Part shown: one piece after another, positions 3 to 6,869 of the stretch
Layout: every line of letters starts with the position of its first letter
How positions within the stretch are numbered: position 1 is the first letter of the stretch
Sequence record: NC_028925.1
Strand: one strand, 5' to 3'
Length of the DNA: 64,000 bases
Origin: Escherichia phage vB_EcoM_VR25
Notes under the pieces: model-generated
Seen by the model: the letters and a program-made list of their open reading frames with translations, nothing else
Database searches by the model: none
Told to the model about the DNA's origin: nothing
Made by a program: the position numbers and the translations under genes

Positions 3-770
3 AAACTGAAAACCTCTTTAACCGTTGAGCTTGCGCAAGACCTGGAAGCAAATGGTTTCGACGCAACAGATTTTATTGATAATATCCTTGGTATTCAAAT
101 GGCAGAGGAAATTAATAAGGACGTACTGCAATCTTTAATTACCGTGAGTTCGCGTTTTAAAGTCCAGGGTGTTTCCGAAAAAGGTGTACTTAATCTTACT
201 GATGCCGCTTATGATAATGCTCAGGACCGTGCTCGAACTCTGTATTATTATATGTGCGAAATGAATTCCGCAGTTCAACGTCAGACTTCGTTCGCTGGTA
301 CATATGCAGTCGCTTCTTCCCGTTGTGCAGCTATTTTAGCAGCTTCTGGCTGGGTTGAGAAAAAGGAAGACCAAGATGAATTGGCCTATGGTGTTCTGAA
401 GAACGGTTTGCCACTTTATGCAGATATGAATAGCCCGTGCGATTATGTTATTGTTGGTGTAAATGCTGATATGGGTGAAGGTCAGACAGTCGCATCTTTG
501 TATTATGCGCCTTATACGGAAGGTCTTAGTGAAGTTGATGATGAGGGTGACACCTCGGTTGGGGAATTCAAGGTTATCGTTGACCCCGAAAGTTTACAGC
601 CTACAGTTGCACTGTTAGCTCGTTATGCACTGACTGCAAACCCTTACACCGTTGCTAAAGACGATAAAGAAGCTCGCATTATTGATGGAGCTGATATGGA
701 TAAGATGGCTAACCAAAGCCAATTGAGTTCTTATCTTGGTGTTAAACTTCCACCACTGGAAAAAGAATAA
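3..770 (+). CDS. 24: capsid vertex protein gp24 (paralog of major capsid protein gp23), 3' portion; gene begins upstream of window
   Basis: Frame open from window edge (KLKTSLTVELAQDLEANGFDATDF... continuing into listed ORF 99..770); sits immediately upstream of rnlB as in T4; cannot exclude gp23 from sequence alone. Confidence 0.6.
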   Translation, partial: KLKTSLTVELAQDLEANGFDATDFIDNILGIQMAEEINKDVLQSLITVSSRFKVQGVSEKGVLNLTDAAYDNAQDRARTLYYYMCEMNSAVQRQTSFAGTYAVASSRCAAILAASGWVEKKEDQDELAYGVLKNGLPLYADMNSPCDYVIVGVNADMGEGQTVASLYYAPYTEGLSEVDDEGDTSVGEFKVIVDPESLQPTVALLARYALTANPYTVAKDDKEARIIDGADMDKMANQSQLSSYLGVKLPPLEKE

Positions 771-2388: not shown

Positions 2389-2495
2389 GTTGAGTTAGTG
2401 AAGCTATCTTAACATGGAATTTTTAACTTGTAAACAGGAGTTTTATGCCAGATATTCTTGAACGTAAAGATTTACTTTACAACCGCCACTACTTT

Positions 2496-2503
2496 AATAA
2501 ATA
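2496..2503 (+). promoter_or_regulatory. late-promoter-like box (AATAAATA, one mismatch to TATAAATA) upstream of collagen-like gene
   Basis: Located ~25 nt upstream of the ATG at 2526. Confidence 0.3.
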
Positions 2504-2525
2504 TTAAATTAATAACGGAGGATTT

Positions 2526-4106
2526 ATGACACAAACTACAGGTGAAAAAGAAGGCGTATTTTACGGTTATTCTCTTTATGATTTGAATAAAGAAAAACTA
2601 ATAACTTTTGATGAATTACTTACAGGTGTTCAAGGAGAGCCCGGAGAAAATGGCGATATTGGACCAAAAGGCCCTATTGGTTTAACAGGTCCTCAAGGAC
2701 CGAAAGGTGATACCGGGTCAAAAGGTATTAAAGGTGATACCGGCCCTCAAGGTATTCAAGGGCCCGCTGGCCCACAAGGTCCTCAGGGAGAAAAGGGAGT
2801 CCAAGGTTTAGCTGGAGTCCAAGGCATTCAAGGACCAGTCGGCCACCAAGGAGTGAAAGGTGATACCGGCCCTCAAGGTATTCAAGGACCGAAAGGTGAT
2901 ACAGGTCCTCAAGGCCCACAAGGTGACAAAGGCGAAATGGGTCCGGTGGGTCCGGCTGGTCTAACATGGAAAGGAACATGGGACGCTGATGTAGAGTATT
3001 CTATAAATGAGGCTGTCGGATATGGTGGTTCTTTATATTTCGCCAAAACAAAAGTTCCTAATGGCGAAATACCAACACCGACTTCTAACTATTGGGGTGT
3101 TTTGGCTACCGAGGGTCCACAAGGTCCACAAGGTCAACAAGGTCTTAAAGGTGATACCGGTCCTCAAGGTATTCAAGGACCTGTAGGGCCTGTAGGGCAG
3201 CAGGGTATTCAGGGACCAAGAGGACTTCAAGGGTCAGAAGGTGAAATAGGACCGCGGGGTATTCAAGGGCTAAAAGGCGAAACTGGGCCCGCTGGTCCAC
3301 AGGGTATTCAAGGGCTAAAAGGCGAGGTGGGTGCTCAGGGTCCTTCTGGTTCTCCTGGACTTACAGGACCAGAAGGACCTCGTGGGTTAACAGGCGAAGC
3401 TGGAGCTCAAGGACCTCGTGGTGCTATAGGTCCTATCGGTTTAACAGGTCCTATCGGTTTAACGGGTCCTCAAGGTATTCAAGGTCCTAAAGGTGATACA
3501 GGTCCTCAAGGCTTACAAGGTCCTCAAGGCTTACGAGGTATTCAAGGAGCTCCTGGAGTAAAAGGAGAAGCGGGTGCACAAGGTCCTATCGGTTTAACAG
3601 GTCCGAAAGGTGATACCGGTCCTCAAGGTATTCAAGGACCGAAAGGTGATACAGGAGCACAAGGTCCTATTGGTTTAACTGGACCTAAAGGTGATACAGG
3701 CCCGAGCCCTTATACTGTTTATAATTATTCTAATGTTGCAACTGGTTATGCTGAAATGGTTATGCCTGGTGTGTCATCAAACACAGTATTTAGACTTCGT
3801 TCAGTTGGAACTAATATAGAATATAGTGTTCTAAGTAAAGGCGGAGCTAATAGATATGTAGATTGGCACTTTTCAATTCCAAGTGTTTCCGGCAATACAG
3901 TAAGTACTAATAGCGGAACTAATACATTAACTCCTACAGGTAATTTTACTATTGTGGCGACCGCTTATAATGGACTAAGGGGATTTACAATAACATTATG
4001 CGAGTGGGGTTCAAGAGCTATTGTTGATATCACTGTTTATCATCATGGGCGTTCGGGAGACACAACCAAAGCTGTGGCTATTCGTATGACTACTACAAAA
4101 TACTAA
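2526..4106 (+). CDS. collagen-like triple-helix repeat protein with globular C-terminal domain
   Basis: 526 aa; about 100 uninterrupted Gly-X-Y triplets in two blocks separated by a ~50-aa W/Y-rich non-collagen segment; ~130-aa non-repetitive C-terminal domain; AGGA-type RBS (ggagga) 6 nt upstream of ATG. Confidence 0.8.
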   Translation: MTQTTGEKEGVFYGYSLYDLNKEKLITFDELLTGVQGEPGENGDIGPKGPIGLTGPQGPKGDTGSKGIKGDTGPQGIQGPAGPQGPQGEKGVQGLAGVQGIQGPVGHQGVKGDTGPQGIQGPKGDTGPQGPQGDKGEMGPVGPAGLTWKGTWDADVEYSINEAVGYGGSLYFAKTKVPNGEIPTPTSNYWGVLATEGPQGPQGQQGLKGDTGPQGIQGPVGPVGQQGIQGPRGLQGSEGEIGPRGIQGLKGETGPAGPQGIQGLKGEVGAQGPSGSPGLTGPEGPRGLTGEAGAQGPRGAIGPIGLTGPIGLTGPQGIQGPKGDTGPQGLQGPQGLRGIQGAPGVKGEAGAQGPIGLTGPKGDTGPQGIQGPKGDTGAQGPIGLTGPKGDTGPSPYTVYNYSNVATGYAEMVMPGVSSNTVFRLRSVGTNIEYSVLSKGGANRYVDWHFSIPSVSGNTVSTNSGTNTLTPTGNFTIVATAYNGLRGFTITLCEWGSRAIVDITVYHHGRSGDTTKAVAIRMTTTKY

Positions 4107-4115
4107 GGAGCTTTA

Positions 4116-4979
4116 ATGGAACCGGTTAAAGCTGTGTTAGAGCCTGATGTAATAGATGTGGAATATGGTAATACATACTCGGCTACTGTAACTCTGTCTC
4201 CTATAGAAAATATTCCAGATGGTTCCGTGATAAGATATGATTGGGTTGTTAATAACAAGTTCGTTGGTACGGGTGAAGCTACTCGTACCACCCAACCATC
4301 TCAGACCGGAAATTATGTATTATCATGTAGAGTATTCATTACTCCGCCTAATGAAAATACTGTAATGATAACAACTAATAAATCATATGGGTATGTATAT
4401 AAAAATTCCGATACAAGTCCAGTAGATGCAGAAATATTATATGATAACAAGATATACCAAATAGGAAGCAAAGTTAGATTATTAGCCGTTGCCAATAACC
4501 CAGATACCAACTTTGTTAAAGGTATTATATGGAAGGATGCTGATGGTAAGATAATAGGTATAGGTCGGGAATATATCCATACAATGCAATCAGAGTATGA
4601 TATAGTTCGAGCTAAAGTTACAATGGATTCGCCTATAAGAGATGAATTTAGTAAGAACTTTACTATACATTTGTACGCTATAAATGTTCAAGAAGGAACA
4701 TGTATAAGATATATTCATCCTTTAGACCACAGGGATGCAGGATTTATCTGGTGTGGTTGGTGGGTTATGGATGAAATCCAACGAGCGATAAAACTTGGGC
4801 TGGATTGGAAAAATCCAAAAGAGCTAGATTTAAATTACAAGTGTGATTTAGAGACATTAGCGTTATTGCTCAAGACATATCCTGAAGCCGAAGTTCAAGA
4901 ATCAAGACACGGATATATAATAACCAGACTACAAATTGAGACTGGCGAAATATATAAAAAACCATATGAAGTAAAATAA
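4116..4979 (+). CDS. Hoc-like outer-capsid decoration protein paralog (Ig-like N-terminal region plus Hoc-type capsid-binding C-terminal domain)
   Basis: 287 aa; C-terminal ~90 aa (YIHPLDHRDAGFIWCGWWVMDEIQ...YPEAEVQESRHGYI) clearly homologous to C-terminus of ORF 5003..6106; starts 9 nt after collagen-like gene. Confidence 0.75.
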   Translation: MEPVKAVLEPDVIDVEYGNTYSATVTLSPIENIPDGSVIRYDWVVNNKFVGTGEATRTTQPSQTGNYVLSCRVFITPPNENTVMITTNKSYGYVYKNSDTSPVDAEILYDNKIYQIGSKVRLLAVANNPDTNFVKGIIWKDADGKIIGIGREYIHTMQSEYDIVRAKVTMDSPIRDEFSKNFTIHLYAINVQEGTCIRYIHPLDHRDAGFIWCGWWVMDEIQRAIKLGLDWKNPKELDLNYKCDLETLALLLKTYPEAEVQESRHGYIITRLQIETGEIYKKPYEVK

Positions 4980-5000
4980 AAGGGCCTTGCGGCCCTTTAT
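4980..5000. terminator. bidirectional hairpin terminator between convergent Hoc-like paralog and hoc
   Basis: gggccttgcggccc stem-loop identical to the one at 771..784, flanked by T-rich tracts on both strands. Confidence 0.7.
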
Positions 5001-5002
5001 CA

Positions 5003-6106
5003 TTAATAGACGTAATCGTATATAATACCAGCTTCCAATGCCGAACGGTGGACGATACGACCGTTACGAGATTCCTGTACATCAACTTCCGGGTAATCAC
5101 TAAGCATTTTGGCTAATACCGCCAGATGACAATAATATGGTGTATCCTCTTTAGTGGCTTTTTTCCAATCTGTACTTTCAGATGTTAATTTCTGAATAGC
5201 GTCCATAACCCACCAGCCACACCAAATATACGCAGTATTACGGACAGGAAGTGGATGTACATAAATTAAAGGGCATTCTTCTGGAATAACAGGCTCTGCT
5301 TCTTCCACAGTAACGGACTTAGTACCTGATTTAACTGAATTTGTAAAGCCTGTTTGTGATGCGGTAACTTCACAAGTATATGTCTTCAAGCCTTCAGTGG
5401 ATTCCGTTATTGCTCTTGTTGCTTCTGTTGAGTTGTCGTCCCATTTATATGCAAGAGTCGCACCAGGGATAGCAGGGGACACAGAAGCTGTCAAATTGAA
5501 TGGAACATCAACCGTTGCAGTAGACGGGCCTGAAATCTCAACAGTGAACTCAGGAAATGTATTGTTTTCGACCGTAACAACTACTGCCTCAGGATTAATA
5601 ACTTGATTGTCATAATCTGCCGCAGAAACGGTAATTTGGCAAGTTAAAGAAACTGGTCCTGCGTCAGTAGCAGCACGAGTAATATCTTTAGTAATTTCAC
5701 CAGTAGACCACAAATATGCTATTGTAGCTCCACCGGGTTCACCTGTTACATTAGCCGAAGCGTTATATTCCTGACCAACTTTAACAGTAGGAGTGGAAGT
5801 TGTTAATGTTGCTGTTGCAGCCATAGTCTTATTATTAACCGTAATGGTTGTTTGAGCCTCTGCCGTTTCAGGCTCTCCTTCTTCCGGCGTTGTGGTGGCA
5901 ACAACTTTAATTACTTTTGAACCTGCTGGGCCAGCTGCAATATAATCCATAGTAGCAATAACAGAATCTTGTGGAACATCATCAACGGTCCATACAAAAG
6001 ATTCGGTACCAGCGACAGCGGCTCCAGCCCCAGTAGCAGTAAAATTAGTTGTTGCACCTATAACCGCTGTAGGTGTTAAAGGGGCAATTGATACAGTATA
6101 AGCCAT
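5003..6106 (-). CDS. hoc: highly immunogenic outer capsid protein Hoc
   Basis: 367 aa; T/S/A-rich tandem Ig-like segments; C-terminal YVHPLPVRNTAYIWCGWWVMDAIQ...YPEVDVQESRNGRIVH matches remembered T4 Hoc capsid-binding domain; synteny next to inh. Confidence 0.85.
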   Translation of the reverse strand: MAYTVSIAPLTPTAVIGATTNFTATGAGAAVAGTESFVWTVDDVPQDSVIATMDYIAAGPAGSKVIKVVATTTPEEGEPETAEAQTTITVNNKTMAATATLTTSTPTVKVGQEYNASANVTGEPGGATIAYLWSTGEITKDITRAATDAGPVSLTCQITVSAADYDNQVINPEAVVVTVENNTFPEFTVEISGPSTATVDVPFNLTASVSPAIPGATLAYKWDDNSTEATRAITESTEGLKTYTCEVTASQTGFTNSVKSGTKSVTVEEAEPVIPEECPLIYVHPLPVRNTAYIWCGWWVMDAIQKLTSESTDWKKATKEDTPYYCHLAVLAKMLSDYPEVDVQESRNGRIVHRSALEAGIIYDYVY

Positions 6107-6134
6107 AAAACCTCCAAGGGCCGAAGCCCTTTTG

Positions 6135-6815
6135 TTAATTTAAACGAATAAAAGATGAGTTACGTGTTTCACGAATAAGAATGGAACCGTCACGATTGAT
6201 ATAGTAAATCAAACTAAACAATGTTTGGTGTGCGCTTGCATGAGTAAAAGAAGTAGGGCGTTCTTTCCAGTCCGGGGTCTCTTTAATCCACTGGTAAATC
6301 CACCAAGGGAGAGTACAATATCCAGGAGCTTTGCCCAGCATAAGCAGATTGGGGCTAAAATTTTTAGGCAGTGTAAATTTAGGAGTTTCAGCTTCGATGA
6401 TTTGAGCGACAGCTTCTTCAAAGTCTTCGGAAACAAACGGCACTTCAATTTCAACGAGTTTAACTTCTGATTCAGGAACAACTTCCTGGGTAACTTCGAC
6501 TACTTCAACGGGTGCTTCTGGAGCATCAAACAAAAGAACAGCTTCAGGTTTAGCTGATTCTTCACCTTCAAACTTACCACCTGATAATTCATCATCGGCA
6601 TTAATAAGGTCGGTGATGCTTAAGCCTTCGTTATCGTCCGGCATAGGCATGTCAGCAAATGCTTGCAGCCCGGCTTCCAGGTCAATCAACATATTATCGA
6701 AAGTTTTTGTTTTCTTAACATCAACACCAAGCGATGATGCATATTCAGCTAATTTTTCTTTGGCTTCTTTTTTCTCGAGGACACGAATTTCCTCAATATA
6801 GTTCTTATCAATCAT
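6135..6815 (-). CDS. inh: Inh-like protein (inhibitor of prohead protease), by position
   Basis: 226 aa acidic protein between hoc and uvsW as in T4; assignment by synteny and size only. Confidence 0.5.
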   Translation of the reverse strand: MIDKNYIEEIRVLEKKEAKEKLAEYASSLGVDVKKTKTFDNMLIDLEAGLQAFADMPMPDDNEGLSITDLINADDELSGGKFEGEESAKPEAVLLFDAPEAPVEVVEVTQEVVPESEVKLVEIEVPFVSEDFEEAVAQIIEAETPKFTLPKNFSPNLLMLGKAPGYCTLPWWIYQWIKETPDWKERPTSFTHASAHQTLFSLIYYINRDGSILIRETRNSSFIRLN

Positions 6816-6833: not shown

Positions 6834-6841
6834 TATAAATA
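6834..6841 (+). promoter_or_regulatory. T4 late promoter TATAAATA upstream of uvsW
   Basis: Exact TATAAATA ~30 nt upstream of uvsW start. Confidence 0.6.
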
Positions 6842-6869
6842 TAGATATATTTATTACCTTGGAATCATC

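Follow-up and report, generated by a model that had tools for sequence, protein, structure and literature searches.

A short second Hoc-family protein, encoded beside a collagen-like fiber gene in Escherichia phage vB_EcoM_VR25, recurs with its partner across genera of T4-like phages

In bacteriophage T4, Hoc (PDB accession numbers 5vf3 and 8t1x) is an acidic protein made up of a string of three immunoglobulin (Ig)-like domains plus a C-terminal capsid-binding domain (C-domain) with Y-x-H, R, WW, D, and ESRxG motifs, and its gene occupies the neighborhood 24.3-hoc-inh. Among the closest described systems, Fokine et al. (2023; PMC10385173) mention a second, shorter Hoc, with two Ig domains and the C-domain, in Serratia phage Muldoon, as well as two Hoc-like proteins in Enterobacter phage PG7, and suggest that the C-domain may serve for the display of other ligands; E. 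coli phage PNJ-9 has a "variant Hoc" of two Ig-like domains and a C-domain, for which adhesion to mucus (MUC2) was reported (PMC11853027). Here, we analyze 64 kb of Escherichia phage vB_EcoM_VR25 (NC_028925.1), the whole of which we refer to as the window and whose coordinates are used throughout. Next to the canonical hoc gene (5003-6106, minus strand, 367 amino acids [aa]), the window contains a convergent open reading frame (ORF) of 287 aa at 4116-4979 (plus strand), both ORFs being present as an earlier reading of this DNA (hereafter, the original prediction) had described them. The 287-aa ORF does encode a second protein of the Hoc family, of a short, three-domain type (two Ig-like domains plus the C-domain) that is equivalent to T4 Hoc minus its first domain, and we refer to it as short Hoc ("Hoc2"). 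The best explanation of the locus, to which we assign a probability of about 0.78, is that short Hoc is a functional member of the family that decorates the capsid and is carried, together with a collagen-like fiber, on a laterally exchanged two-gene cassette; the part of this explanation that has short Hoc competing with Hoc is less probable than the rest.

Short Hoc shares with T4 Hoc the motifs of the C-domain, the string of Ig-like domains, the acidic character (pI of 5.3, against 4.3 for the resident Hoc), and the 24.3-hoc-inh neighborhood. It differs from T4 Hoc in having two rather than three Ig-like domains, in the substitutions N358H and Y304F, and in being a second copy that lies on the strand opposite to the resident hoc and downstream of a collagen-like gene. 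The second Hoc of Muldoon is 314 aa in length and its C-domain is 48% identical to that of short Hoc, but the two Muldoon hoc genes are arranged in tandem on one strand, unlike the convergent genes of the window, and the 11.8-kb stretch around them contains no collagen-like gene. The variant Hoc of PNJ-9, which we liken to short Hoc by architecture only, is that phage's Hoc and not a second copy; since this three-domain Hoc is functional, it provides a precedent for short Hoc.

The original prediction regarded a two-component capsid decoration system of this kind as undescribed, but the arrangement is annotated in VR7, VR26, JS10, and Aeromonas phage 65, in addition to the second, shorter Hocs mentioned in PMC10385173. 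VR26 and VR7 have the same gene in the same cassette as the window, with an upstream collagen-like gene and a convergent hoc: the VR26 ortholog, gp243 (98.6% identical), is annotated in RefSeq as "Hoc-like head decoration," as is EpJS10_0177 of JS10, and the depositors of VR7 noted VR7ORF197w as "similar to bacteriophage T4 Hoc." The record of Aeromonas phage 65 lists a "hoc-2, second copy of the hoc gene" beside a gene annotated as "similar to collagen-like proteins," and the name "Hoc I" appears in the records of CGG4-1 and ABTNLsp5. In the searchable literature, we found no experimental or comparative study of second Hoc copies, the sole mention being that of Fokine et al. (2023), nor did we find a description of the pairing of the fiber gene and short hoc across T4-like phages. 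Novelty is thus limited with respect to the second short Hoc, which is already known by annotation and in passing, and lies in its pairing with the fiber, which goes beyond the annotations.

The similarity between short Hoc and Hoc is real and far beyond chance, as judged from the E values of BLASTP, profile, and PDB comparisons. Short Hoc aligns with the resident Hoc at an E value of 6e-28, and their C-domains alone, which are the only two Hoc C-domains in the window, show 48.8% identity across 86 aa (E ~4e-27), such that the resemblance of the C-terminal ~90 aa reported in the original prediction holds up as a significant pairwise alignment. Residues 5 to 280 match phrog_1149, "Hoc-like head decoration" (E = 1e-57), with an additional match to phrog_21694, and a phmmer comparison with the T4 Hoc chains in the PDB (5vf3/8t1x) aligns T4 residues 121 to 376 (E = 3e-26); the C-domain of short Hoc, of ~95 aa, corresponds to T4 Hoc residues 281 to 376, the C-domains of the two proteins being 53% identical. 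The same prediction considered the N-terminal parts of short Hoc and the resident Hoc to be unrelated, and their pairwise score is indeed marginal (E = 0.005), but this view is rejected at the levels of profile and fold: the N-terminal 192 aa alone match phrog_1149 (residues 5 to 190; E = 1e-12), the alignment with T4 Hoc extends over them, and the AlphaFold2 (AF2) model (mean predicted local distance difference test [pLDDT] score of 86) consists of two beta-sandwiches (about residues 1 to 96 and 100 to 189, both at a pLDDT of >85) followed by an alpha/beta C-domain. In Foldseek searches, the model matches generic Ig/FN3 two-domain tandems in the PDB (probability of 1.0), with no Hoc among the matches of the whole model to that database, and its best viral fold matches (BFVD) are Hoc proteins over their full length (E values of 1e-20 to 1e-30). 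With two Ig-like domains of the Hoc type at its N terminus, the protein is therefore a three-domain short Hoc. Its domains, and the neighboring canonical gene, are as follows.

4116..4406, plus strand: short Hoc Ig-like domain 1, aa 1-97 (AF2 pLDDT of 91-96 with beta-sandwich strands; Ig/FN3 fold matches; Hoc profile)
4407..4691, plus strand: short Hoc Ig-like domain 2, aa 98-192 (AF2, fold, and profile; aligns to T4 Hoc domains 2-3)
4692..4979, plus strand: short Hoc C-terminal domain, predicted to bind the capsid, aa 193-287 and stop codon (homology to Hoc C-domains)
5003..6106, minus strand: canonical hoc, 367 aa, three Ig-like domains and C-domain, at the T4 position beside inh (phrog_1149, E = 3e-116; synteny)

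The contacts that Hoc makes with the capsid are known from T4, where residues Y293, H295, Y304, W306, W309, W310, Q354, Y360, R300, and H299 touch gp23*, a further contact is formed by the loop E355-S-R-N-G359, whose R357 is paired to D313, and Asn358 is hydrogen bonded to Arg344 of gp23 (Fokine et al. 2023; PMC10385173). When aligned with T4 Hoc, short Hoc keeps every one of the listed gp23* contact residues save for Y304F, which is a conservative change, and N358H, which is also present in the sole Hoc of Kosakonia phage 305; the conserved features of its C-domain include the Y-x-H motif, the Arg, WCGWWVMD, and QESR(H)GY. On the capsid side, the docking segment of gp23 (T4 residues 326 to 344) is identical in VR26 and Kosakonia 305, differs from that of T4 solely by S327A, and retains D336 and R344. 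Given these conserved residues and the conserved gp23 segment of VR26, short Hoc is very likely able to dock on the centers of gp23 hexamers, which is where the original prediction expected the C-domain of a second Hoc-type protein to anchor.

The gene directly upstream of short hoc encodes a collagen-like fiber that begins with a conserved N-terminal module of ~33 aa, continues with G-X-Y repeats that are interrupted by a central noncollagen domain (aa ~140-200), and ends in a C-terminal tip of ~120 aa. Pfam has no family for the N-terminal module, the central domain, or the tip; the central domain (W-x-G-x-W…Y-F) is present in 74 phage records. Our set of cassettes comprises 12 loci, from seven named genera and one unclassified metagenome contig, and these 12, along with a few exceptions, were inspected by hand.

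Gaprivervirus: this window, VR26, and VR7
Dhakavirus: KIT01, JS10, and ABTNLsp5
Kanagawavirus: Kosakonia phage 305
Gelderlandvirus: CGG4-1
Roskildevirus: Cronus
Ishigurovirus: Aeromonas phage 65
Biquartavirus: AhFM11
Not classified: a 173-kb metagenome contig

The collagen-like gene is located directly upstream of, and on the same strand as, short hoc in all 12 cassettes, and the gap between the two ranges from -4 to +29 nucleotides (nt) in 11 of them (in two pairs, the genes overlap by ATGA). Two families can be recognized among the short Hocs, with family I consisting of those of the window, VR26, KIT01, VR7, Kosakonia 305, and the metagenome contig, and family II of those of JS10, ABTNLsp5, CGG4-1, Cronus, Aeromonas phage 65, and AhFM11. 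The ~30-aa N-terminal module of the fiber tracks this division without exception (12/12), reading TGEKEGVFYGYSLYDL… (the TGEKEGVFYGY type) alongside family I and with LFGHDGRGNF… (the FGHDGRG type) alongside family II. Fiber tips, in contrast, are shuffled independently: the tip found in the window recurs in JS10 (57% identity), Rogunavirus e4/1c (51%), and Vequintavirinae A7_1 (56%), and the fibers of KIT01 and VR7 have other tips. The conserved pairing hints that the collagen-like fiber and short Hoc work together.

The fiber itself is a mosaic: its N-terminal module and central domain are conserved, but its tips are traded between T4-like phages, Rogunavirus siphoviruses (in which the gene belongs to the head module), and Vequintavirinae (in which it belongs to the tail-fiber cluster). 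In e4/1c, a DUF1737 domain replaces the N-terminal module. The surroundings of the collagen homologs in Rogunavirus e4/1c and Vequintavirinae A7_1 were examined for Hoc-like or Hoc2-like proteins, and none was found.

Signals that bear on the expression of the pair are distributed over the following features of the window, which are listed together with inh.

2495..2503, plus strand: late-promoter-like box TAATAAATA (consensus match with one mismatch)
2526..4106, plus strand: collagen-like fiber gene, 526 aa (Pfam Collagen, E = 2e-50; alignment with relatives)
4107..4110, plus strand: Shine-Dalgarno sequence GGAG of short hoc, directly 3' of the collagen stop codon at 4104-4106 (from the sequence)
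4979..4998: GC-rich hairpin between the convergent genes, a likely bidirectional intrinsic terminator (folding, z-scores, and conservation in relatives)
6135..6815, minus strand: inh (prohead protease inhibitor), a marker of the conserved hoc-inh head-gene locus (phrog_1051, E = 1e-88; annotations of relatives)

The GGAG of short hoc abuts the stop codon of the collagen-like gene, and the gap between the genes is 9 nt, which suggests that they are cotranscribed and possibly translationally coupled. The late-promoter-like box (of the AATAAATA type, with one mismatch to the T4 sequence TATAAATA) is situated 23 nt upstream of the collagen-like gene and is a consensus match only; the same AATAAATA variant also precedes inh, a head gene (6848-6855, minus strand). 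From these motifs, late cotranscription of the cassette is plausible. A perfect TATAAATA box is present at 6834-6841 (plus strand), just upstream of uvsW and back-to-back with the AATAAATA box of inh, and the inh-uvsW gap looks like a divergent pair of late promoters. A mini-ORF of 20 aa with a good Shine-Dalgarno sequence (2445-2507, plus strand) lies exactly where the collagen-like genes of KIT01 and JS10 start, and the window, VR26, and VR7 have ~80 extra bases between this conserved leader (the mini-ORF) and the real collagen start (2526 in the window).

At the 3' end of the cassette, the 23-nt gap between the convergent short hoc and hoc genes is filled by the hairpin at 4979-4998, AAAGGGCC-TTGC-GGCCCTTT, which has an 8-bp stem with 5 GC pairs (-13.5/-13.9 kcal/mol; z about -3.1/-3.6). 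The T-run that follows it is strong for the minus strand (the hoc transcript) and weak on the plus strand (UUUAUCAUU), and a terminator scan scored the hairpin for the minus strand only. Hairpins of the form A-tract/stem/T-tract, with other stem sequences, occupy the same position in 10 related loci, and because of these equivalents with different stems, the hairpin is likely to be a shared bidirectional terminator. The original prediction of such a terminator is therefore borne out as regards a GC-rich hairpin with an A-run and a T-run that is conserved in 10 loci, and less so as regards termination on the plus strand, where the T-run is weak. A second GC-rich hairpin, AAGGGCTTCGGCCCTT (6116-6131, minus strand), which has a UUCG loop and a stem resembling that of the hairpin at 4979-4998, is located in the 28-nt inh-hoc gap just before the Shine-Dalgarno sequence of hoc.

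In the scenario that we favor, a cassette consisting of the fiber gene and short hoc, which is exchanged laterally among T4-like phages, was inserted into a Gaprivervirus (VR26/VR7-like) genome at a variable region, where it lies between 24.3 and hoc. A single mRNA, probably a late one, would cover both genes and terminate at the shared hairpin. Once the head has expanded, the C-domain of short Hoc would dock at the gp23* hexamer's center, which is the site of canonical Hoc, and since the docking site is the same, the two proteins would share or compete for the ~155 sites. The outcome would be a mixed coat with two fiber lengths and two sets of Ig surfaces, and the most likely role of short Hoc is that of a second decoration protein at the same hexamer-center site as Hoc. 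The analysis itself shows the homology, the domain architecture, the conserved contact residues, the purifying selection, and how the cassette is built and distributed, whereas binding to the capsid, competition with Hoc, and expression late in infection are the steps that we infer. Several observations weigh against this scenario: the Asn358 that in T4 bonds with Arg344 of gp23 is replaced by His in short Hoc; the phage's own gp23 lies outside the window, so that its docking segment had to be taken from that of VR26, a relative; the capsid-contact loop (aa 200-208) is of low confidence in the AF2 model; upstream of the cassette, there is a one-mismatch box but no perfect T4 TATAAATA sequence; and no virion proteomics or structure was found in the searchable literature for any cassette-bearing phage.

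Other accounts of the gene concern its origin and its fate. By calling the capsid-binding domain duplicated, the original prediction implied a recent tandem (inverted) duplication of the C terminus of the resident hoc and its fusion to unrelated sequence, and the two genes do adjoin and have the C-domain in common. The two C-domains, however, are only 49% identical, and that of short Hoc is nearer to the Hocs of other genera, being 59 to 65% identical to Hocs of Kosakonia, Serratia, Erwinia, Acinetobacter, and Proteus phages and to the short Hoc of VR7 (59 to 62% when the comparison is with the sole Hocs of the Serratia, Erwinia, Acinetobacter, and Proteus phages). These identities, together with the match of the N-terminal part to Hoc profiles, rule out a recent local duplication, which we regard as scarcely credible also in view of the recurrence of the whole cassette in other genera. 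Orthologs of short Hoc are found in VR26 (98.6% identity), KIT01 (a Dhakavirus; 93%), and VR7 (41%), and judged by the nearness of its C-domain to the Hocs of other genera and by the 93% copy in KIT01, short hoc is a laterally exchanged xenolog and no local duplicate. An acquired hoc could also have become a relic that is off the capsid, or have taken on some other noncapsid role: the region that holds the gene is variable, one contact residue is changed by N358H, and Hoc is dispensable in T4. But a comparison with the KIT01 ortholog gives a ratio of nonsynonymous to synonymous substitution rates (dN/dS) of 0.07 at a dS of 0.47, and since all three domains have low ratios, the substitution pattern is that of a gene under strong purifying selection and not that of a relic. 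In addition, the ORF is intact with a good Shine-Dalgarno sequence in every inspected relative, the contact residues are conserved, and the same type of protein is the sole Hoc of Kosakonia 305, all of which make decay or a nonstructural role very improbable.

A further alternative, which develops the suggestion of the original prediction that the protein might be a capsid anchor for the collagen-like protein, assigns the two genes of the cassette to a two-component head fiber, in which short Hoc would be a capsid adaptor whose Ig part holds the N-terminal module of a trimeric collagen-like fiber, and the swappable tip of the fiber would bind an environmental or host ligand. The result would be a modular, laterally mobile, two-part head fiber: a Hoc-derived adaptor in the hexamer center and a trimeric collagen-like fiber with exchangeable ligand-binding tips. 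The adjacency of the genes in 12 loci from seven named genera and one contig favors this arrangement, as does the agreement between fiber N terminus and short-Hoc family in 12/12 against a background of shuffled tips, although co-transfer of the genes as one block would also explain their adjacency. Moreover, the N terminus of the fiber is identical in the window and VR7, and yet the Ig domains of their short Hocs are 28 to 37% identical. Among family II short Hocs, Ig1 is better conserved than Ig2 (42% versus 29%), and the short Hoc of Cronus, encoded beside a fiber gene, keeps Ig1 and the C-domain only; Kosakonia 305 has the pair without a canonical hoc. The genomic contexts of fiber homologs point both ways, since in Rogunavirus the gene is found directly upstream of the one for the major head protein, but in Vequintavirinae A7_1 the same N-terminal module occurs in a tail-fiber cluster with no Hoc-like neighbor. 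In IME08, the fiber gene, whose annotated start differs, is separated from short hoc by rnlB and 24.3, and there are second Hocs, such as that of Muldoon, with no fiber gene at the inspected locus. A precedent for collagen-like decoration of hexamer centers exists in SPP1 gp12, a collagen-like trimer that binds there directly. The SPP1 protein is small, at roughly 60 to 70 aa, and the likeness is by description only, the fiber in the window having 526 aa with central and tip domains and any link that it has to the capsid running through a separate Hoc-like protein. The display of other ligands through the Hoc C-domain, as raised by Fokine et al. (PMC10385173), is in keeping with an adaptor, but the seating of a trimeric fiber on a monomeric Hoc entails a stoichiometric mismatch. 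On balance, we consider a physical complex of this kind possible but doubtful, and we retain as the preferred reading a functional short Hoc that decorates the capsid and is exchanged along with its fiber gene.

Over its first 10,500 positions, the window has its genes arranged as in the head/recombination region of T4, namely, the end of gene 24, rnlB (minus strand), 24.2 (minus), 24.3 (minus), the collagen-like ORF (plus), the 287-aa ORF (plus), hoc (minus), inh (minus), uvsW (plus), uvsY, 25, and 26. The nearest records to the window are those of the Gaprivervirus phages VR26, VR7, and VR5, and the C-domain of the resident Hoc is 100% identical to that of the VR7 and VR26 Hocs. Between the window and VR26 (4207-5070), short hoc has 4 nonsynonymous and 0 synonymous changes, and the adjacent hoc has a dS of 0.09; this contrast between the two genes suggests a recombination mosaic or a very recently shared cassette, and the counts are too few to speak for positive selection. 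Two tandem copies of gene 24 (vertex protein) are present in the relatives VR7, VR26, JS10, IME08, Kosakonia 305, Cronus, and S16, and the start of the window (99-770) falls inside a gene 24 copy that, by synteny with VR26, is probably the second.

Two of the loci contain additional genes with Hoc C-domains. The hoc locus of Erwinia phage Cronus (9204-13327, minus strand) encodes a Hoc-like protein of 177 aa, another of 128 aa that extends scarcely beyond the Hoc C-domain, and a degenerate one of 117 aa resembling the Hoc C-domain. A motif in the C-terminal tail (…VIYINPMALIVM and …LVYIDPLKIVI) is common to the 128-aa and 117-aa proteins, and their genes lie directly upstream of a 927-aa gene annotated as "EPS depolymerase," an enzyme for which these small proteins may be capsid-anchoring adaptors. 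Three genes with Hoc C-domains occur at one locus of Salmonella phage CGG4-1 (5422-11643), which comprises a 279-aa hoc, a 944-aa Hoc-like gene with a non-Ig N-terminal region of ~500 aa, and a short Hoc of 285 aa that is encoded downstream of a collagen-like gene of 539 aa.

A second Hoc is ordinary in itself, and what it shows is the lateral swapping of Hoc genes. With the C-domain as the query, tblastn returned 1,184 places in 1,142 phage records, such that at most ~42 records (3 to 4%) have more than one copy; Salmonella phage S16 has a single hoc. These points bear on T4 Hoc display technology and on ideas of how phages adhere to mucus. If short Hoc and the collagen-like fiber do form a physical complex, the cassette would constitute a modular head-fiber system with swappable tips that is present in distant Straboviridae, would add to the ordinary Hoc of T4-like phages a second, capsid-borne adhesin system, and would offer a natural capsid-specific socket for the display of trimeric proteins. 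Were this the case, and taken together with the small Hoc C-domain proteins of Cronus, the capsid-binding domain of Hoc would serve generally as a socket by which accessory proteins are hung on the phage head.

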